Source of the DNA: Phycisphaerae bacterium | GTDB taxonomy: Bacteria; Planctomycetota; Phycisphaerae; JAAYCJ01 | Assembly (NCBI GenBank): GCA_041658725.1 | Contig: JBAZZQ010000008.1 | Location: 18,070-82,069, forward strand | Direction: 5' to 3' | Length of the DNA: 64,000 bases | Shown here: one piece after another, positions 8,864 to 53,937 of the stretch | How positions within the stretch are numbered: position 1 is the stretch's first letter | Layout: each line of letters begins with the position of its first letter | Translations under genes and position numbers: made by a program | Notes under the pieces: generated by a model | Seen by the model: the letters and a program-made list of their open reading frames with translations, nothing else | Databases searched by the model: none | Told to the model about the DNA's origin: nothing

Positions 8864-9062
8864 TCTTGATCCCTCCTCTCATTTGCCCACATCAGCAGTG
8901 GGTAATTCTAACGTCCCCGAAAAAAAACTTGGTAAAATGAAACAAAGCACCCTTAAATTTCTTCGTCAGATTCGGCAGCAAAAAGATAAAGGTATTTCGT
9001 CCCACTGGAAGCATCCTGTCCAATTATATTATACAATACAAAATACCAGCGATATGACACCT

Positions 9063-9188
9063 GATTAATTAATGCGCTCGGAGGCAAGTCGTCGATGCTC
9101 GTTTATGGTGGGTTGTCATGCTGATTTAGGCTTCAAAGCCGTTATTAACGCGGCGATGGATATTTGTCTCAGAGCGCATTAATTAATC
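9063..9188. repeat. 17-bp perfect inverted repeat (GATTAATTAATGCGCTC / GAGCGCATTAATTAATC) enclosing a 93-nt spacer. This is a candidate structured RNA or regulatory element.
   Basis: The arms at 9063-9079 and 9172-9188 are exact reverse complements. The element lies in the 540-bp divergent intergenic region. Confidence 0.5.
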
Positions 9189-9402
9189 ATGTGTCGTATA
9201 ATACCCGCAGTTCCCGTATTTCCATCACCATCCGGATTGACCGGATGATCCAGATTTGCCTTTTCGGCCACAAATAAAGGAAAAGACGCATGCAACGCGT
9301 CTCTACAAGTGATAAAGCCTGTGGCGAAAGATTGCGGGGGCTTAACACATCTGGAATTTTCCGGTATACTCTTTACCTTTATTACCGGTAAAGGCTCAAA
9401 AA

Positions 9403-12204: not shown

Positions 12205-12751
12205 GATTTAAATGGACTTTCCGATGATGTCGAAGATATCAGCGAATGGAGAGTTTTATTGCAAGATTCTGGAAATTTTGGTATCGTCCCAAAGGTTGGG
12301 GAAACCATGTATCTGTTACTTATCAGCTATCCAGAAAGAGGATCGCGCTTGTCCGAGCCCTCAACGGTCTTTTCCATAACTTCCCAGCGGGCAAAGAGCT
12401 GGATGTCCGCCATCGACCAAAATACACTCATGGGTCGTTTCATGTTCACCTCAACGAGACTCATCTATAAGTGATTGCCAAAACAACATTTAGCAAATGA
12501 TTGACTCCAAGTGGTCTTTCTTTGCCGACAAAGCCAGTTCAACGATGGCCGCCAGCCCTGTCAAATCGCTGACACCGTTTCAGTTTGGGTAAACATCGCC
12601 GGGGATTTACCTGGGTAGCTGGCTCCTCTACAAGGGAACCTTCTGCCGATTCCCTATCCCCAGCTTTTGGGACGATAATGAAATTTTGCAATAGGCTGCT
12701 CATTTAACGAAAGCCATAAGACGGTGCAGTACCGTCAACTAGCAAAGGAGA

Positions 12752-13894
12752 ATGGCTATGAAGCGGAATTTGACCATTATCACTCTGTCGATTCTGTGGT
12801 TTTTATCATATTTTTCACCGTTGGTCTGGGCGGTTTCCGGCTCCGTTTACTCGGTGGGCAATGATACATACGGGCAATTGGGCATCAATCCCAGATTACC
12901 AGTGTCGGCGTCGATCAACGGCGTGGTGGGAATCGCCGCGAGCTACTACCACAGCCTTGCGGTCAAGGGCGACGGGACCGTATGGGCATGGGGATACAAC
13001 GGCTATGGCGAGTTGGGCGACGGGACTACGGTGGATCGCTCGACGCCGGTGCAGGTTTCGGACCTGACGGGCGTGGTGGGAATCGCAGCGGGCGGCTTCT
13101 ACAGCCTTGCGGTCAAGGGCGACGGCACGGTATGGGCATGGGGATACAACGACTCCGGCCAGTTGGGCGACGGGACTACGACGAATCGTTCGACGCCGGT
13201 GCAGGTTTCGGACCTGACGGGCGTGGTGGGAATTACCGCGGGCGGCTTCCACGGCTTGGCAGTCAAGGGCGACGGCACCGTATGGGCATGGGGACAGAAC
13301 GACTTCGGCCAGTTGGGCGACGAGACTACGACGAATCGTTCGACGCCGGTTCAGGTATCGGGCCTGACGGGCGTAGTGAGAATCGCAGCGGGCTACTACC
13401 ACAGCTTGGCGGTCAAGGGCGACGACACCGTCTGGGCATGGGGATACAATGGCTACGGACAGTTGGGCGACGGTACTACGACGGATCGTTCGACTCCGGC
13501 GCAGGTCTTGGGCCTGACGGGCGTGGTGAGAATCGCCACGGGCGGTTTCCACAGCTTGGCGGTCAAGGGCGACGACACCGTATGGTCATGGGGATACAAC
13601 GGCTACGGTCAGTTGGGCGACGGTACTACGACGGATCATTCGATGCCGGTACAGGTATCGGGTCTGACGGGCGTAGTGGGAATCGCCGCGGGCTACTATC
13701 ACGGTCTAGCCATTAAAATTCTCAGCGGCGACTGCGACGACGACGGCAACGTGACGGCGGCGGACCTATTGATCGTGCTCAACAGCATGGATAAATCGAC
13801 GGGCGAGGTGGATTACGACGGCCGTGCGAACCTCGACGGCGATGGATCAATTAGCTCAACCGATCTTGCCATCGTGTTGGATAATATGGAATAG
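12752..13894 (+). CDS. Secreted RCC1-repeat (beta-propeller) protein with a C-terminal type-I dockerin module
   Basis: Signal peptide. Seven ~50-aa RCC1/ATS1 repeats (VWAWGYNGYGQLGDGTT...). The C-terminal DCDDDGNVTAADLLIVLN...DLDGDGSISSTDLAIVLDNM has two dockerin Ca-binding repeats. Confidence 0.8.
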   Translation: MAMKRNLTIITLSILWFLSYFSPLVWAVSGSVYSVGNDTYGQLGINPRLPVSASINGVVGIAASYYHSLAVKGDGTVWAWGYNGYGELGDGTTVDRSTPVQVSDLTGVVGIAAGGFYSLAVKGDGTVWAWGYNDSGQLGDGTTTNRSTPVQVSDLTGVVGITAGGFHGLAVKGDGTVWAWGQNDFGQLGDETTTNRSTPVQVSGLTGVVRIAAGYYHSLAVKGDDTVWAWGYNGYGQLGDGTTTDRSTPAQVLGLTGVVRIATGGFHSLAVKGDDTVWSWGYNGYGQLGDGTTTDHSMPVQVSGLTGVVGIAAGYYHGLAIKILSGDCDDDGNVTAADLLIVLNSMDKSTGEVDYDGRANLDGDGSISSTDLAIVLDNME

Positions 13895-38542: not shown

Positions 38543-40819
38543 TCAGATACCGGTAGCCACTTTTGTGGAGGTGATGGTTTCATCGGGAGAGGCGGAGGGC
38601 GTTTGGGAAGGATATGCGATCCGGCTGTGATAGAAGCCGCTGAGACTCTTAGTCAGACTGTCCTCGACGGCGTGCAATTCACGCAGGGTAATGTCGCAAT
38701 TGTCAAACTGTCCGTCTTCGAGGCGTTTTTCGACGATCTGATGGACGATGGTTTCAATACGTCCCATCGTAGGTTCCGCCAGGGATCGTGCGGCGCTTTC
38801 GACCCCGTCGGCAAGCATGACGATGGCGATTTCCTTGCTATATGGTTTTGGGCCCGGATAACGAAAGGCCACATCCAGAGCTTCCTTGTCGCTTTCCGGC
38901 TGCTGGACGGCCTTGTTGTAGAAGTATTCGATCAGGGTCGTGCCATGATGCTCGGCGATAAATCGAGTGATGACGTTAGGCAAACCATATTCCTGGGCAA
39001 GTTCCAAGCCGTCTTTGACATGTCCGATGATGATCAGCATGCTCATGGCGGGCGAGAGACCTTTATGCCGGGTAATGACATTTCCCGGCTGGTTTTCCAC
39101 GAAATATTTTGGTTTGTTGATTTTTCCAATATCGTGATAGTAGGACCCTGCCCGTGCCAGCAGTCCGTTGGCACCAATGGCGTCGGCGGCGGCTTCGGCG
39201 AGCGATCCGATAAGGAGCGAATGACTGAAGGTGCCGGGCGCTTCGAGGGTCAATTTTCGAAGGAGCGGTTTACTGGCGTCGCACCATTCGAGAAGGGTCA
39301 TACTGGTGGCGATCTGGAAAAGTCTTTCGATCACGGGCAAAAGACCCTGAACCACCAACCCCGCCGCCAGGGCCCCCCCTGCCGCGGACATGGCGCTTTT
39401 GAGGATATATTTTACTTCCTGATAATCGGCCAGTTGCGAGGCCCAGACCACGGCAAAGGCCATCAGCGCGGCGGCGGAGGCGATTTCGATGAGTTTGGAC
39501 CGGCTTCGAATCTCTTCGAGGGTCAGAACCACCGTCGCTCCACCGGCAAGCAGGGTAAGGAGCAGACTGACGTTTCCATTCAGGGTAATCATCAACAGGC
39601 AGACCAGGGCGGTCATCACCACGAGGGCAAATCGATGGTCATAAGCAATGCTCATCACCATCGCCAGCAAAACAACCTCAAAAACGGTCCCGTAACTATT
39701 CCATCCACCCAGGTCCATGATACGGGCCATAGCGACCATGGCGAATAAGGATAGAGCGAGCACCGAAGCCCTGGACCAGTTATGGATCGCTTTCCGCTGG
39801 AATCTGGCACAATAAACCCACAAGGAAACACTGATCACTACTACAAGCATAGCAATGCCGGCCTCGGCCAAAAGTTTTTCGCGTGGATTAATCGAATTCC
39901 AGTAGGCCTTGTTTTCCATTTCCAGCAGTTGGACTTCGCGTTTATCGATCTCCTGATCTTGCTTGACAAGCAAACTTCCAGGTTCAAATTTTCGGAAAAC
40001 CCTATTGGCCTCCGAATCGAAACGGGTCTGCCGCTGTTTATCGGTGGCGGCTTTGTCAAAAAGCCAGATGGGTTTGAAATTTTCCTTCAGATACCGCTCG
40101 ACGACGGGCTGAAAACCCAAAGGCAGGACCTGGATAGTTCGGGCAAGAAAGGCATTTACTTTCTCGCTGTCCGTATCGAAGATCCATTGATCGGTTTGCC
40201 GTGGGATTTTAGTTTCCGGATTAACAAGCACAACGGTATTTGCCTTGCGGTATTCTTCGGGAATCACCTCGATGCTGTTTCCGGCGGCGAGGGAAGTTTT
40301 CAGTTTTCGCACGGACTTTTGAAATTCCTCCGGTGATATCTTGGAAATAAATTGTCGAAGGTCGTTAAAATTTTGAGCGTTGATATGCCACGTTTTTTCG
40401 AAGACCAGCTTTTTGGCTGTCGGCAAGTCGCTGTGCTGCTTGATGGCTTTAAGATCGTTGTAAAAAAGGGTCAGGTCCTGATCGACCTGCTCCAGAAACA
40501 CCTTATTCGGAAGATAATAATTCGGGGTGGACTGCCGAGCCTGCTCCTGGGCTTTGGCCGTCGCTTGTTCGTCGAATTCCTGAAACTCGGCACGGACACG
40601 AATATCCTGCCGCGGCTTTTGACCGATCCCCCACGGCATGACCTGTCCGCCGATCACAATCACTCCGCTGGTGATGCACACGAAAATAATTCCGATCACA
40701 ATACCCCAGGGAGAAATGCGATGGCGAATTTTCTCCATGGCGCCCTGCGATCGCAGAGATGGGGTGCGTTTAAGCTCGTTCTTGTTTTTTTTATTAAAAA
40801 ACCACATAATGCTACGCAT
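38543..40819 (-). CDS. 7TM-receptor HD-domain phosphohydrolase (PgpH/YqfF-like, 7TMR-HDED + HD)
   Basis: Extracellular N-domain, 7 TM helices, and a C-terminal HD domain (HDIGKINKPKYF, IAEHHG). Confidence 0.8.
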   Translation of the reverse strand: MRSIMWFFNKKNKNELKRTPSLRSQGAMEKIRHRISPWGIVIGIIFVCITSGVIVIGGQVMPWGIGQKPRQDIRVRAEFQEFDEQATAKAQEQARQSTPNYYLPNKVFLEQVDQDLTLFYNDLKAIKQHSDLPTAKKLVFEKTWHINAQNFNDLRQFISKISPEEFQKSVRKLKTSLAAGNSIEVIPEEYRKANTVVLVNPETKIPRQTDQWIFDTDSEKVNAFLARTIQVLPLGFQPVVERYLKENFKPIWLFDKAATDKQRQTRFDSEANRVFRKFEPGSLLVKQDQEIDKREVQLLEMENKAYWNSINPREKLLAEAGIAMLVVVISVSLWVYCARFQRKAIHNWSRASVLALSLFAMVAMARIMDLGGWNSYGTVFEVVLLAMVMSIAYDHRFALVVMTALVCLLMITLNGNVSLLLTLLAGGATVVLTLEEIRSRSKLIEIASAAALMAFAVVWASQLADYQEVKYILKSAMSAAGGALAAGLVVQGLLPVIERLFQIATSMTLLEWCDASKPLLRKLTLEAPGTFSHSLLIGSLAEAAADAIGANGLLARAGSYYHDIGKINKPKYFVENQPGNVITRHKGLSPAMSMLIIIGHVKDGLELAQEYGLPNVITRFIAEHHGTTLIEYFYNKAVQQPESDKEALDVAFRYPGPKPYSKEIAIVMLADGVESAARSLAEPTMGRIETIVHQIVEKRLEDGQFDNCDITLRELHAVEDSLTKSLSGFYHSRIAYPSQTPSASPDETITSTKVATGI

Positions 40820-40924
40820 AAATGACTAAATCCTAATGACGAATGTCTAATCAATGACTAAGCCCTAATGTCTAAAAGGATTTGGTCATTAGACATTACT
40901 TCGTCATTAGTCATTAGGATTTAG

Positions 40925-41938
40925 TCATTTCCTTTTTCCATTTCCACCGTATGCCTCAACTATAGTTTGGACGAGTCGATGACGAACGATATCCACTCCG
41001 GTGAGGCGAACCACGCCGATGCCCTTGACACCACCGAGTTTCCTGACGGCATCGACCAGTCCGGACTGATCCGGGCGTTCCAGATCGACCTGCGTGTCGT
41101 CTCCGGTGACTACCATCTTAGAATGATGTCCAAGCCGCGTCAAGAACATGAGCATTTGGGAGGCGGTGGTGTTCTGAGCCTCATCCATGATAATCGCGGC
41201 ATTATTCAGGGTTCTTCCTCGCATGTAGGCCAGTGGAATTACCTCGATCAAATCGTTCATCATAAAACGTTTGAGCTGATCGAACCCCATCATTTCTTGC
41301 ATGGCATCGAAGAGAGGCCGCAGATACGGATTCACTTTCGCCTGCAGATCGCCGGGAAGATAACCAAGTTTTTCTCCTGCCTCCACGGCGGGTCTGACCA
41401 GGACAATCCGTTTAATGACTCCTTGTTTAAGCGAGGAAACCGCCATCGCCACAGCGAGATAGGTTTTACCCGTTCCGGCGGGACCCAGACAAAAGACAAG
41501 ATCGTTATTGGCGATGGACCGGATATACTCCGCCTGGCCGGGTGTTTTCGGGATAATTTTGACTCCCCTGGTAAAGACCTCGATCGTTTCTGTAACAATT
41601 TCCCCTTTGCCCTGCGATTTTTCCTCTTCAATTGCAGGTTCCAGGGAGGCCAAGGCTTCGTGAACGTCGGCCACGTCCAACTGGTCGCTATCAAGAAGCA
41701 TCTGCTGCATCCGCTCGATGACGGAGGCGGTCTTGCCCACCGCTTCGGCGCGACCACAGAGTTTTACCGAACTATCTCTCGCCACCACCTGAACGTCGAA
41801 CATTTCCCGCAGGATCCGCAAATTTTTGTCATTGGGTCCAAAAAGGGCTGTTCGATGGGCGTGGGGCTGTAATGTTATCGTTAAATCCAATTCGGACTCT
41901 CCTGCGTTTATAAAATGTATTTTAGCGCCAGATACCAT
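40925..41938 (-). CDS. phoH: PhoH-like ATPase
   Basis: Walker A GPAGTGKTYLAVAMAV and the PhoH core. An N-terminal KH-like region is present. Confidence 0.9.
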   Translation of the reverse strand: MVSGAKIHFINAGESELDLTITLQPHAHRTALFGPNDKNLRILREMFDVQVVARDSSVKLCGRAEAVGKTASVIERMQQMLLDSDQLDVADVHEALASLEPAIEEEKSQGKGEIVTETIEVFTRGVKIIPKTPGQAEYIRSIANNDLVFCLGPAGTGKTYLAVAMAVSSLKQGVIKRIVLVRPAVEAGEKLGYLPGDLQAKVNPYLRPLFDAMQEMMGFDQLKRFMMNDLIEVIPLAYMRGRTLNNAAIIMDEAQNTTASQMLMFLTRLGHHSKMVVTGDDTQVDLERPDQSGLVDAVRKLGGVKGIGVVRLTGVDIVRHRLVQTIVEAYGGNGKRK

Positions 41939-44070: not shown

Positions 44071-44829
44071 CTATAGCTTAGTGCTGATGGCGCCGAATTT
44101 TCTTTCCCGCTGGACGTAGTCCTGGATGGCACGGTGAAGATGGTCTTCGGAAAAATCGGGCCAGCAGTCTTTTTCCACGTAGAACTCCGTGTAGGCCAAC
44201 TGCCAGAGAAGGAAATTGCTCAATCGCCGCTCCCCGGCGGTGCGGATAATCAAATCCGGATCGGGCATGCCGGCTGTGTAGAGATGATCGCCGATCAACG
44301 TCTCGGTTACTTCTTCGCCCGAAAGTTCCTTTCGAGCGATTTTTTGGGCAATGACCTGCATTGCATCGGTGATTTCGACGCGGGAAGAATAATTTAACGC
44401 CAGGGAAAGGATCAGGCCTTTATTCCCGGCAGTGGCGGCCATGGTCTCGGTCAGCCGCTGCTGAACGGATTCGGGCAATCCGGTCATTCGGCCCAGGTGC
44501 CGAAGTTTGACCTCAAGGGACATCATTTCCGGCAATTCATGTGCCAGATATTCGGCGCAGAGCTGCATGAGAAATTCCACTTCCTCCCGCGGACGTTTCC
44601 AGTTTTCCATGCTAAAGGAATAGAGCGTGAGGTATCCGATTCCGAGTTTGGAGCATTCGGTGACCATCTTGCGCACGACTTTAGCGCCCTGCCGATGGCC
44701 TTCGATGCGAGGCAGATTTTTCCACTGGGCCCATCGGCCGTTACCGTCCATGATCATGGCGATATGTTTCGGCAACTGCTGAGGTTTTAACCCCAAAAGA
44801 CTTTCGATGTCATGTAATATTACGGGCAT
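44071..44829 (-). CDS. uppS: Isoprenyl transferase (undecaprenyl pyrophosphate synthase)
   Basis: IAMIMDGNGRWA, plus the RTAGERRLSNFLLWQ...YTEFY hallmarks of cis-prenyltransferases. Confidence 0.9.
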   Translation of the reverse strand: MPVILHDIESLLGLKPQQLPKHIAMIMDGNGRWAQWKNLPRIEGHRQGAKVVRKMVTECSKLGIGYLTLYSFSMENWKRPREEVEFLMQLCAEYLAHELPEMMSLEVKLRHLGRMTGLPESVQQRLTETMAATAGNKGLILSLALNYSSRVEITDAMQVIAQKIARKELSGEEVTETLIGDHLYTAGMPDPDLIIRTAGERRLSNFLLWQLAYTEFYVEKDCWPDFSEDHLHRAIQDYVQRERKFGAISTKL

Positions 44830-44848
44830 TTTTGCTTTCCATTTTTTG

Positions 44849-45361
44849 AACCACAGAGATCACAGAGATCACAGAGAAAATCATAAGACATCTATACATA
44901 AATCATTCCGGCTTAATCCCCTTTATGTTAGAATAATCCGTTTGATTCCATCGACGAGCATTGGGACGTTAAAGTTAATCAATAGCCCAAGTTGTTTTCC
45001 CGTGGCTTTGAGATAGGAAAGCACTTGAGCGGAATGAATAGGGGCAAGTTCCTTTGTTGCCTTTATTTCAAGGATAAGAGCATCTTCGATTAAAAAATCC
45101 AACCGATGCTCTCCGACACATTCGTTTTTGTAATGGATTTTCACCGGTGCCTGACGGATAAAAGAAATTTCTTTCAATCGAAGTTCCACACATAGCGATT
45201 CTTCGTAAATGGTCTCTAAAAATCCCGGCCCAATTACTCGATGCACCTCAATAGCAGTGCTAATGACAGAATGAGAAAGGCTATTGAGACCATTACTGAA
45301 GGTATTTTGCCTATTATTCATAAACATTTCTTTCTCTGTGTTCTCTGCGATCTCTGTGGTT
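44849..45361. mobile_element. TIR-flanked cassette of ~513 bp carrying a GxxExxY gene. The 30-bp terminal inverted repeats are built from CACAGAGAT tandem units.
   Basis: Left end 44849-44880 aaccacagagatcacagagatcacagagaaaa. The reverse complement of the right end (45331-45361) is aaccacagagatcgcagagaacacagagaaa. Confidence 0.45.
44923..45327 (-). CDS. GxxExxY family protein (PD-(D/E)XK nuclease superfamily)
   Basis: GPGFLETIYEESL contains the G-x-x-E-x-x-Y signature, with a downstream D...E.K (LIEDALILEIKA). Confidence 0.75.
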   Translation of the reverse strand: MFMNNRQNTFSNGLNSLSHSVISTAIEVHRVIGPGFLETIYEESLCVELRLKEISFIRQAPVKIHYKNECVGEHRLDFLIEDALILEIKATKELAPIHSAQVLSYLKATGKQLGLLINFNVPMLVDGIKRIILT

Positions 45362-45374
45362 TAAACCTCTTTTA

Positions 45375-46727
45375 TTATATTTTTATCGCTACCGTTTGGT
45401 CGCGTTCCGGGCCTACGCTGGCCAATTTGATCGGGCAATTCAGCAGTTCCTGAAGCCGGCGCAGATATTTGACCGCGCCGGTCGGTAATTGATTTTGCTC
45501 TTTGGCGGCGGTGATATCCTCGGTCCAGCCCGGAATCTCCTCATAGACAATCTCAACTTTTTCAAGAATATGGCTATCGGTGGGGAAAAAATCGAGGGGT
45601 TTTCCGTCCACTTTATATTGGACCGCGATCTTGATCGGGTCCAGTCCGCTTAATACGTCCAAAAGCATAACCGCCAGGGAATTGATTCCGCCGATCATGA
45701 TGGAATATTTTACAGCCACGGCGTCGAACCAGCCGGTGCGTCTCGGTCGGCCGGTCGTCGTGCCGTATTCCTTGCCCCTAACGCGAATGCCTTCGCCGAT
45801 GTCATTTTTCAATTCAGTGGGGAAAGGACCGGCTCCCACGCGGGTGGTGTAGGCTTTGATGATCCCGAGGTAGCTGTGGACCAGAGCGGCAGGTACGCCC
45901 GTGCCCGCTGAAAGTCCGCAGGGGCCGGAGTTGGAGCTGGTTACGTAAGGATAGGTCCCGTGATCGAGGTCCAAGAGCGCGCCCTGGGCGCCTTCAAACA
46001 TGATCCGCTTGCCCTGGTGAAGATTGCGGTGGAGCAGTTCCGCCGTATCACAGACGTAGGGTTTAAGTTCGTCGGCGTAATTACAAAACTGGTCGTAAAT
46101 TTCCTTCCAGTTCAGTTCGGCCGCGCCATAGAGGGCTTGGAAAATTTTGTTTTTATCGGCAACGATCCGCTGGAGTTTTTCCGCGAAATGCTTTTTATCG
46201 TAAAGCTCGCCCAGCCGGATACCGTAACTGCGATAAGCCTTATCGGCGTAGCAGGGACCGATTCCCCGGCAGGTGGTTCCGAGTGAATTTCCGGCGAGTT
46301 GTTTTTCACTGAGCTGGTCCTGGAGTTTATGGTAAGGGAATACCACGTGAGCCTTGCTGGAGATTTTCAGGTTCTCCGCCACTTTGACGTTACGGCTTTT
46401 TAAGGTTTTAATTTCCTCCAGGACGACCTGCGGATCGAGGACGACCCCGTTGGCGATGACCGCGGTGGCCGTAGGGGAGAGGATGCCCGAAGGGACCAGG
46501 TGCATGGCGAATTTTTCCTTGCCGATGACCACGGAATGACCCGCGTTGGCCCCTCCGCTGTACCGGACAACCAGGTCGAATAATCCCGCCGGTCCGCCCG
46601 GATCGGTCAGGAGGTTGACAATTTTACCCTTGCCCTCGTCGCCCCATTGAAGCCCGACCACACATACATTTCCCGGCAAATCTATTTTCATTACTTGTTG
46701 TCCCTGCGTTTTTAACATAGCGAACAT
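45375..46727 (-). CDS. purA: Adenylosuccinate synthetase
   Basis: P-loop GLQWGDEGKGKIVNLL and TTCRGIGP. The GTP/IMP binding motifs are collinear with PurA. The start may be the internal Met at 46691. Confidence 0.9.
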   Translation of the reverse strand: MFAMLKTQGQQVMKIDLPGNVCVVGLQWGDEGKGKIVNLLTDPGGPAGLFDLVVRYSGGANAGHSVVIGKEKFAMHLVPSGILSPTATAVIANGVVLDPQVVLEEIKTLKSRNVKVAENLKISSKAHVVFPYHKLQDQLSEKQLAGNSLGTTCRGIGPCYADKAYRSYGIRLGELYDKKHFAEKLQRIVADKNKIFQALYGAAELNWKEIYDQFCNYADELKPYVCDTAELLHRNLHQGKRIMFEGAQGALLDLDHGTYPYVTSSNSGPCGLSAGTGVPAALVHSYLGIIKAYTTRVGAGPFPTELKNDIGEGIRVRGKEYGTTTGRPRRTGWFDAVAVKYSIMIGGINSLAVMLLDVLSGLDPIKIAVQYKVDGKPLDFFPTDSHILEKVEIVYEEIPGWTEDITAAKEQNQLPTGAVKYLRRLQELLNCPIKLASVGPERDQTVAIKI

Positions 46728-53866: not shown

Positions 53867-53937
53867 CATTGTGCCACGGTCGGCTTGTCCGACCGTGCTC
53901 TGAAGACACGGCTGGACAAGCCAGCCGTGGCACAATG
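53867..53937. terminator. 71-bp double palindrome: two 31-nt arms, each containing its own inner hairpin. It may act as a terminator or REP-like element after cinA.
   Basis: Arms are CATTGTGCCACGGTCGGCTTGTCCGACCGTG and CACGGCTGGACAAGCCAGCCGTGGCACAATG. Compensatory changes preserve the inner stems. No U-tract follows. Confidence 0.4.

Follow-up and report, generated by a model that had tools for sequence, protein, structure and literature searches.

A GxxExxY nuclease gene enclosed by inverted tandem-heptamer arms between purA and uppS of a Phycisphaerae bacterium, a design resembling that of rRNA intervening sequences

No function is known for the GxxExxY proteins, a very large family (18,828 clusters at 50% identity, E ≤ 1e-3) noted chiefly for genes that are scattered and multicopy. 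In the 64,000-nt stretch of Phycisphaerae bacterium DNA analysed here (the window), one such gene lies between purA and uppS and is flanked on both sides by inverted repeats. This locus raises the question of whether gene and repeats together make up a bounded unit and, if they do, what kind of unit it is and how it came to lie between two housekeeping genes. The first-pass annotation had offered two possibilities, a miniature non-autonomous element or a recombination cassette, and had considered that a defined unit of this gene with terminal inverted repeats was, to its knowledge, not a described mobile element.

The bounded unit itself is real. An inverted-repeat search pairs 44845-44879 with 45331-45365 (35 nt, 32/35 complementary or 91%, 451 nt apart), and the cassette is roughly 520 bp long (44845-45365), its arms reaching 4 nt beyond the 44849-45361 first proposed on each side. 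The left arm contains three CACAGAGAT units without a mismatch (44852-44878), in agreement with the initial description of a 3-unit tandem of a 9-mer, and the right arm is the complement of these units with 2 substitutions. All features of the locus are on the minus strand. Read in the sense of the gene, the 5' arm (45331..45365) is TTTAAAC-CACAGAG-AT-CGCAGAG-AA-CACAGAG-AAA, that is, a terminal TAAAC pentamer and then three heptamers of period 9, with a gap of 3 nt to the ATG; terminal pentamer and unit consensus were derived from 116 arms (see below). The intact gene (44923..45327, 134 aa plus stop) is followed by a 43-nt spacer (44880..44922), which cannot be aligned with the orthologous cassette of a relative (L001), and by the 3' arm (44845..44879), TTT-CTCTGTG-AT-CTCTGTG-AT-CTCTGTG-GTTCAAA, which complements the 5' arm. 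The cassette is separated from the purA stop codon (45375-45377) by 9 nt that include AAGAGG (45366..45374), and from the uppS ATG by 15 nt (AAATGGAAAGCAAAA, 44830..44844) that include GGAAAG. uppS may use the latter as its ribosome-binding site; in L001 the matching position reads GGGAAG.

The location between uppS and purA holds up as well, with Pfam matches for the upstream neighbour, purA (adenylosuccinate synthetase, 45375..46727; PF00709, 4e-168), and for the downstream neighbour, uppS (undecaprenyl diphosphate synthase, 44071..44829; PF01255, 2e-83), whose product is 100% identical to a protein (P0121) named by NCBI ‘MAG: isoprenyl transferase [Phycisphaerae bacterium]’. Both genes, and cdsA after them, have the same orientation as the cassette gene. 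Within the window the arms are distinctive. The 17-mer CACAGAGATCACAGAGA (two units, up to 3 mismatches) has 4 matches in the 64 kb, all within the two arms, against 0.04 expected from shuffled sequence; CACAGAGA is likewise confined to the two arms, and the cassette repeat is one of only 3 inverted repeats of at least 35 nt within 3 kb. Neither a second GxxExxY copy (tblastn) nor a further hairpin with these arms was found in the 64-kb window, which thus gives no sign of activity in this genome. Target-site duplications just outside the cassette, which the first-pass annotation had suggested looking for, are not visible; no such duplication or direct repeat lies outside the arms in either the window or L001.

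The product of the cassette gene matches TIGR04256 (GxxExxY protein) with 140 bits against a curated cut-off of 35 (E 4e-41) and PF13366 (PDDEXK_3), its sole Pfam match, with 136.7 bits against a cut-off of 22 (E 6e-40), which bears out its initial assignment as a 134-aa GxxExxY protein of the PD-(D/E)XK type. G35, E38, Y41, D77, E87, K89, Q101 and Y105 are intact, so both the GxxExxY motif and the PD-(D/E)XK catalytic residues are present, as is the Q101-x-x-x-Y105 motif. In RecB and Cas4 nucleases, the combination of PD-(D/E)XK residues with a Q-x-x-x-Y motif points to a DNA-end or single-strand nuclease. The GxxExxY product is a minimal Cas4/RecB-like PD-(D/E)XK nuclease, with activity and substrate inferred. 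It differs from the Cas4 chains that it matched in length (134 aa for this minimal domain, 202-215 residues for the chains) and from Cas4 systems in that its window has no CRISPR context. PADLOC gave only a weak Cas4b match, and searches of PDB sequences and of PHROGs with the protein gave no match.

Is the cassette an insertion, or an old part of the purA-uppS spacer? The junctions of relatives, retrieved via UppS homologues, are informative here. The purA stop codon and the uppS ATG are separated by only 9-12 nt in four lineages (L226/227, L229/230, L231 and L233/234), whose UppS is 68-77% identical to that of the window; examples of such empty spacers are TAG-AGGATTTCC-ATG and TAA-AAGGATTTTAA-ATG. 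L001 (UppS 78%, GxxExxY 77% identical) carries the orthologous cassette, L228 (UppS 74%) has an ORF-less hairpin of CACCAAG/CACAAAG units at the junction, and L232 has an unrelated 77-nt spacer there. The window, L001 and L228 each retain, immediately beyond the left end, an AAGGA-like purine tract of the old spacer, and the AAGAGG at 45366..45374 resembles the AAGGA/AGGA of the relatives' empty spacers. As these junctions show, the cassette is an insertion into a spacer of otherwise 9-12 nt, and the outcome that would have refuted a cassette, its sequence lying without boundaries in the orthologous spacers of relatives, is not what those spacers contain. The star-like shape of the UppS tree leaves a single gain with later losses indistinguishable from several gains. 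The empty junctions also amount to a presence/absence polymorphism at a conserved site, which is one criterion for a homing gene. The closest GxxExxY homologue (P0001) is 90% identical.

The same packaging is widespread. We examined 80 metagenomic loci encoding relatives 50-66% identical to the protein, which with the window and L001 make 82. A flanking inverted repeat scoring at least 14 was present at 66 of them; as background, the median score was 7 and the 95th percentile 10 among 2,897 further ORFs (80-260 aa) from the whole of the fetched DNA, and scores of 17 or more were almost exclusive to GxxExxY ORFs. With a strict regular expression, arms of CRCNRAG units were recognised on both sides at 47/80 loci and in the opposite polarity at 6/80, and the median cassette size was about 534 bp. 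The arms take the form of a TGAAC-like pentamer followed by two to four CRCNRAG units in tandem with a period of 8-9 nt. The unit met most often is CGCCAAG; further variants are CACAGAG, CGCAGAG, CACCAAG and CGCAAAG, and CRCNRAG is the general form. The regular expression did not impose the terminal pentamer, which over 116 arms is T in 69%, G in 57%, A in 84%, A in 85% and C in 89%, and exactly TGAAC in 49. In addition, the major unit type of the left arm matches that of the right in 41/48 cassettes, whereas 10,000 permutations gave 19 matches on average and never more than 29. Visual inspection of the ends of the 48 two-armed cassettes showed no TTAA-type or other target duplication.

More distant members of the family (35-45% identity) in named organisms are packaged alike, namely in Bacteroides finegoldii (in the order radA, GxxExxY, FAD-dependent protein gene), Bernardetia and Sphingomonas (fabD, GxxExxY, fabG). 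A Treponema copy has an inverted repeat of 11 nt only, and a Fusobacteria copy has direct repeats in place of inverted ones. By these repeat scores and arm patterns, the packaging holds for most of the sampled relatives and for several distant Bacteroidota and Alphaproteobacteria, and the possibility that other GxxExxY loci would lack shared termini can be set aside. Orientation relative to neighbouring genes is mixed across loci, so co-transcription is no universal requirement. The arm unit type tracks the protein phylogeny only weakly; cassettes of the CACAGAG type, for instance, form no protein clade (mean identity 0.62 within the type, 0.61 between types). Co-evolution of protein and arms, which we considered, is statistically detectable but weak, and this weak tracking argues against a tight co-specificity of protein and arm at the variable unit positions.

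The arms are also where cassettes are exchanged. At the orthologous loci L144 and L181 the flanks are 95-100% identical while the cassette interior is only 65-70% identical, the left break coming directly after TTGAACCGCCAAGACGCC and the right break at the 3' arm. The alignment is that of a cassette replacement, and an interior more divergent than its flanks is a second criterion of homing genes that is met. In the pair L157 and L159 the interior aligns forward and both flanks align in reverse, so that the cassette is inverted between the same flanks. A third pair, L130 and L132, was considered as one cassette in two contexts and proved to be the same locus with differing arm copy numbers. A bounded cassette with arms as recombination ends is therefore supported by the replacement and inversion, although the way in which it moves is inferred. 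Between the two possibilities raised at the outset, ‘recombination cassette’ is the best-fitting reading, because replacement and inversion, observed at other orthologous loci, break in the arms, whereas ‘miniature non-autonomous element’ suits only ORF-less hairpin relatives (below) and not the gene-bearing copy of the window.

The inversion at L157/L159, where the two orientations occur between the same flanks, together with the mixed neighbour orientation across loci, could also be taken as the mark of an invertible switch in which the arms flip the nuclease gene relative to operon transcription for ON/OFF phase variation. The cassettes of the window and L001, the latter with an extra inner arm, nevertheless share one orientation across deep divergence, and no recombinase gene was noted beside the cassettes, the annotated neighbours seen being ordinary housekeeping genes. 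A single inversion over about 20% divergence is compatible with rare homologous recombination, and we find a dedicated switch very hard to credit.

The arms occur far more widely without the gene. The pattern CACAGAGNNCRCRGAGNNCACAGAG, standing for (CACAGAGNN)x3, is present at no fewer than 120 genome loci, for a chance expectation of about one match estimated from database size, and the hosts among the matches listed include Planctomycetota, Acidobacteriota, Chloroflexota, Cyanobacteria, Bacteroidota, Proteobacteria, Verrucomicrobia, Gemmatimonadetes and others. None of the 120 CACAGAG loci listed has an intact GxxExxY gene. Most of them are hairpins made of an arm, 20-200 nt and a second arm, with ends like those of the cassette. 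Arms of the CGCCAAG type were likewise found as ORF-less hairpins, at 24 loci on viral contigs. ORF-less hairpins occupy operon spacers, for example at L029, at L228 and in the window itself (40820-40930), and at L219 one hairpin is nested in the loop of another. Could the hairpins be decayed GxxExxY genes? By tblastn, an internally deleted GxxExxY remnant is present inside the hairpin of L076 and at no other of the 120 loci listed, and we rejected this as a general explanation. Other cargo was also looked for; long-range arm pairs mostly belong to two different hairpins with ordinary genes in between, and only L075 has an ORF (411 aa, without a Pfam or PADLOC match) in the proper polarity between its arms. 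No Rfam family matches the cassette (44700-45500, E ≤ 1), and 18 hairpin loci had no Rfam match at the gathering score; sub-threshold miRNA-precursor matches on L240 and L246 were dismissed as generic hairpin matches.

A population of short relatives around a gene-bearing unit invites comparison with a classical cut-and-paste transposon, in which GxxExxY would be the transposase and the ORF-less hairpins its MITEs. The cassette has the required terminal inverted repeats, with multiple subterminal units like many transposase binding sites, it shows presence/absence polymorphism, and L076 is an internally deleted copy. The second requirement, a target-site duplication, is not met, and the 134-aa single-domain nuclease has no recognisable strand-transfer domain. 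Furthermore, the copies of a classical MITE are alike, whereas hairpins on one contig have common arms and unrelated loops; hairpins whose loops are unrelated within a genome are not copies of one deleted master. Interiors swap and arms stay. We consider such a transposon improbable, more so than the arrangement discussed next.

Alternatively, the hairpins could be the main entity. Like the cassette, REP/REPIN-RAYT systems place a single gene between inverted copies of a repeat that is also dispersed as intergenic hairpin doublets, and GxxExxY could be a domesticated or semi-domesticated enzyme for maintenance or dispersal of REPIN-like hairpins. The hairpins far outnumber the genes, as the lack of an intact GxxExxY gene among the 120 CACAGAG loci listed illustrates, and the protein is under purifying selection (see below). 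The criterion of flanking repeats is satisfied, with the dispersed hairpins lying in other genomes; the window itself has no solo hairpin of the same type. The defining enzyme is another matter, since a RAYT is an HUH/Y1 transposase of the IS200/IS605 type and the cassette encodes a PD-(D/E)XK nuclease with a Cas4-like fold, for which PF13366 is the only Pfam match. REPs are lineage-specific; the GxxExxY arms, by contrast, are common to many phyla, and their unit type follows the protein phylogeny weakly. We therefore regard a REP/RAYT-like system as unlikely too.

If the cassette is a recombination unit, how is it tolerated between purA and uppS? We recognised no sigma-70-like promoter and no minus-strand intrinsic terminator within the cassette, which is therefore probably read within the purA-uppS-cdsA transcript. 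In the predicted fold of a 551-nt segment of RNA, the arms form a 30-bp closing stem in both the MFE and centroid structures (z = -5.3), and the AUG lies 4 nt inside this stem, so that the stem would contain any ribosome-binding site, in the purine-rich terminal part of the 5' arm. A wobble signature of pairing in the sense RNA was not found, arm mismatches being 46 G.U and 69 A.C; without a G.U excess, nothing specifically supports selection on sense-RNA pairing. Pairing of the arms in RNA is thus plausible, without specific support from the sequence statistics.

Selection on the cassette itself is evident from comparison of the window with L001. Although synonymous sites are saturated (dS about 2.4), dN/dS is 0.06 for GxxExxY and 0.08 for uppS, and in the 3' arm the heptamer positions are identical at 21/21 whereas the two-base spacer positions between units are identical at only 1/4. 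Both the gene and the heptamer words are, on these substitution patterns, functionally constrained by purifying selection. Once fixed, a purely selfish homing nuclease would not usually be constrained as uppS is at a locus occupied for so long, which hints that GxxExxY has a function at the level of the host or an addictive one.

These results bear on the main rival to our reading, a purely RNA-level element. Here the arms would exist for the stem that they form in the operon transcript, where it would serve RNase III processing, insulation or stabilisation of the mRNA, or translational silencing; the GxxExxY protein would be a nuclease serving the host in repair or defence, with no part in moving the cassette, and ordinary homologous recombination between similar arms would bring about gains, swaps and inversions incidentally. 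The position of the stem, which encloses the ORF and stops just short of the start codon, the want of a promoter or terminator, and ORF-less hairpins in operon spacers (L029, L228, window 40820-40930) all agree with this, as does RNase III excision among the precedents set by intervening sequences (PMC4990558). A host function of this sort is favoured by the strength of purifying selection and by the long time that the cassette has stayed at one locus. Against it, the sense orientation shows no G.U excess, and gene orientation relative to neighbours is mixed. Moreover, RNase III acts on a stem independently of its sequence, which leaves the conservation of TGAAC and CRCNRAG across phyla unaccounted for, and patchy presence at one junction among close relatives requires a route of insertion. 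An explanation at the RNA level alone thus seems to us doubtful, though it deserves to be taken seriously.

The design of the cassette, a gene within stem-forming arms of tandem heptamers, has so far been described only for the intervening sequences (IVS) of rRNA genes. The IVS of the Coxiella 23S rRNA gene was described as a selfish element with inverted repeats and an S23p ORF; its 5' region contains three tandem GACAGAT heptamers, and RNase III excises it (PMC4990558). Like the cassette, the 23S rRNA IVS of Leptospira and Coxiella burnetii have a small promoterless ORF within stem-forming inverted repeats, a 5' arm of tandem heptamers, short ORF-less versions, a size of 0.4-0.75 kb and a sporadic distribution suggesting transfer (PMC4990558). 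The criterion of a long stem from inverted repeats enclosing the insert is met by the 35-nt arms and 30-bp stem; that of a position inside the 23S rRNA gene, at helix 25 or 45, is not, the cassette being located in the spacer of a protein-coding operon. The cargo differs as well (S23p in the IVS, a PD-(D/E)XK nuclease here), and excision by RNase III has been shown for the IVS and is only inferred for the GxxExxY cassette.

S23p genes are themselves not restricted to rRNA. We searched plasmids with an S23p-like sequence as probe, which is validated by the annotation of its matches as ‘four helix bundle protein’ or ‘S23 ribosomal protein’. All eight S23p loci that were read have inverted arms of tandem 7-8-nt units, and their settings include the cas6-cas4 and nrdB-nrdA intervals and others of that kind. 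The units are diverse (TTAGCTG, TAGGGAG, TAGGGTG, GGACAGA, GGGCAGGA and others), so that S23p arms vary by locus, whereas GxxExxY arms keep TGAAC and CRCNRAG across phyla. Among these loci, one on a plasmid of Azospirillum lipoferum is embedded in an LSU rRNA gene (RF02541, 716 bits), which makes it a true IVS; the units of its 5' arm are GGACAGA/GGACGGA.

Other known systems fit less well. I-Ssp6803I is a PD-(D/E)XK homing endonuclease, and homing endonucleases of its type share with the cassette a small PD-(D/E)XK nuclease inside an element that it could propagate, as well as presence/absence polymorphism; the divergent interior between near-identical flanks at L144/L181 adds to the likeness. 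The cassette, however, has no intron or intein and occurs at many unrelated sites, for which the hairpin arms are the only shared candidate target. Integron attC cassettes resemble it in having a promoterless single ORF and an imperfect palindrome with conserved ends and a variable centre. The attC site, however, lies downstream of its ORF, has RYYYAAC/GTTRRRY cores and belongs to arrays beside intI, whereas the GxxExxY arms enclose the ORF, end in TGAAC-C... and ...G-GTTCA, and have purA and uppS as neighbours here. The element thus lacks what defines integron cassettes, RAYT systems and transposons that make target-site duplications. In the literature we found no description of GxxExxY cassettes or of these arms, and only passing mentions of ‘GxxExxY’ and ‘PDDEXK_3’; coverage was incomplete and this is absence of evidence only. 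The exact arm sequences had a single bacterial match, a B. fragilis PCR primer that contains CTCTGTGTTCTCTGTGG by chance. The view that this is not a described mobile element consequently stands for the GxxExxY cassette as such and has to be qualified for its design, which has a precedent in the S23p-bearing 23S IVS (PMC4990558).

We propose, at what we judge to be even chances of being right, that the unit between purA and uppS is an IVS-like hairpin cassette, spread by a homing-like conversion that its nuclease triggers and rendered harmless by an RNA stem; the roles of both the nuclease and RNase III are inferred. At the DNA level, the arms would be the recognition and homology sites through which the cassette enters, is swapped and is flipped. 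The Cas4-like nuclease would probably make the initiating cut, cleavage of an unoccupied target being an inference, and homing-like gene conversion into hairpins with matching arms could follow. The inserted cassette would then probably be transcribed within the purA-uppS-cdsA transcript, where the arms are predicted to close the ORF with a 30-bp stem ending 4 nt before the start codon. This stem would be a likely substrate of RNase III, as in the IVS of rRNA, although its cleavage too is inferred. Together, stem and RNase III would hold expression of the nuclease low and make an insertion in an essential operon tolerable.

A wider and more tentative proposal, which we rate as possible but not probable, is that GxxExxY cassettes, S23p cassettes, the 23S IVS and the ORF-less hairpins are one unrecognised class of mobile element, in which hairpins with arms built of repeats act as landing pads, small genes are copied into the loops by gene conversion upon a nuclease trigger and the RNA stem neutralises the insertion. 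The GxxExxY gene would here encode a Cas4-like nuclease recognising TGAAC-(CRCNRAG)n. The conserved ends of the cassettes already offer TGAAC-(CRCNRAG)n as a concrete and testable nuclease substrate.

The cassette of the window is, as far as we can tell, a local instance of a broad and apparently undescribed pattern. Its arms belong to a family of intergenic hairpins that crosses phyla and has been ignored by annotation pipelines, and hairpins inside essential operons (purA-uppS, fabD-fabG, nrdB-nrdA) may affect the expression of those operons. In this way, the 30-year-old puzzle of where rRNA IVS come from becomes connected with elements that are far more numerous and reside in ordinary operons. 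If the proposal of a single class were true, it would explain both the origin of rRNA IVS and the function of two large protein families now called ‘unknown’.

The GxxExxY cassette is not the only inverted repeat in the window. An ORF-less hairpin at 40820-40930, with arms of 42 nt (86% complementary) around a 27-nt loop, takes up all of the space separating ORF 38543-40819 (-) from ORF 40925-41938 (-). Its arm words are TAATGAC/TAATGTC-like; the design principle is that of the GxxExxY cassette arms, the unit sequence a different one. A second inverted repeat (12273-12302 / 12657-12686; 30 nt, 83% complementary) encloses 354 nt in which only short ORFs, of 74 aa (+) and 54 aa (-), are found; the repeat is positioned just upstream of an RCC1-repeat-like gene at 12752. 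This repeat and its interior could represent another small bounded unit. There are two more long hairpins, one at 9052-9087 / 9164-9199 (36-nt arms containing TTAATTAATGCGCTC, loop of 76 nt) and one at 53867-53937 (GC-rich 31-nt arms, loop of 9 nt); tandem-unit structure is absent from both.

The CACAGAG type of arm can be traced to a well-studied strain. A published PCR primer, the reverse one for the BF2782 amplicon in Bacteroides fragilis NCTC 9343 (PMC3090145), contains AACTCTGTGTTCTCTGTGGTG, and this sequence is a CACAGAG-type hairpin arm with its GGTG end. CACAGAG-type hairpins are therefore present in NCTC 9343.

Arms of this type were also seen, in proper polarity, around a 411-aa ORF in a Pirellulales MAG (L075, 80-1580), for which neither Pfam nor PADLOC returned a match; it is the sole cargo other than GxxExxY that we have seen within CACAGAG-type arms. 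At another locus (L157, ~2400-2500), CATCACGTCACG-like tandem units form a run adjoining a GxxExxY cassette and a minus-strand ORF; a further small cassette, built on arms of another kind, may be present here.

GxxExxY genes themselves vary in their surroundings and in domain number. On a plasmid of Fusobacteria bacterium ZRK30 (L248), the gene is flanked by repeats of about 50 nt (~440-520 and 900-960) that contain AATCCGTGT and are direct rather than inverted. The short inverted repeat of a Treponema copy (L247) is ACACGGATTCG. Packaging of GxxExxY genes in these phyla may differ. Many family members, 250-295 aa in length, carry two tandem GxxExxY domains, seen as two matched stretches in the protein-representative search (e.g. 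P0241-P0244).

The layout of the arms is itself variable. The orthologous purA-uppS cassette (L001, 18-95) has an extra inner arm, which gives its outer 5' arm two possible partners: a local one, across an 11-nt loop, and the 3' arm far away. The same arm-arm'-gene-arm' layout is found in the S23p cassette of a Pseudanabaena galeata plasmid (L236), inserted between cas6 and cas4; on a Nostoc edaphicum plasmid (L237), an S23p cassette lies antisense between the two ribonucleotide reductase subunit genes. Finally, in a locus from a viral-contig collection (L219, 4390-4526), a CGCAGAG-armed hairpin with TTAAC ends sits inside the loop of a CGCCAAG-armed hairpin, and this nesting suggests that hairpin loops are insertion sites.
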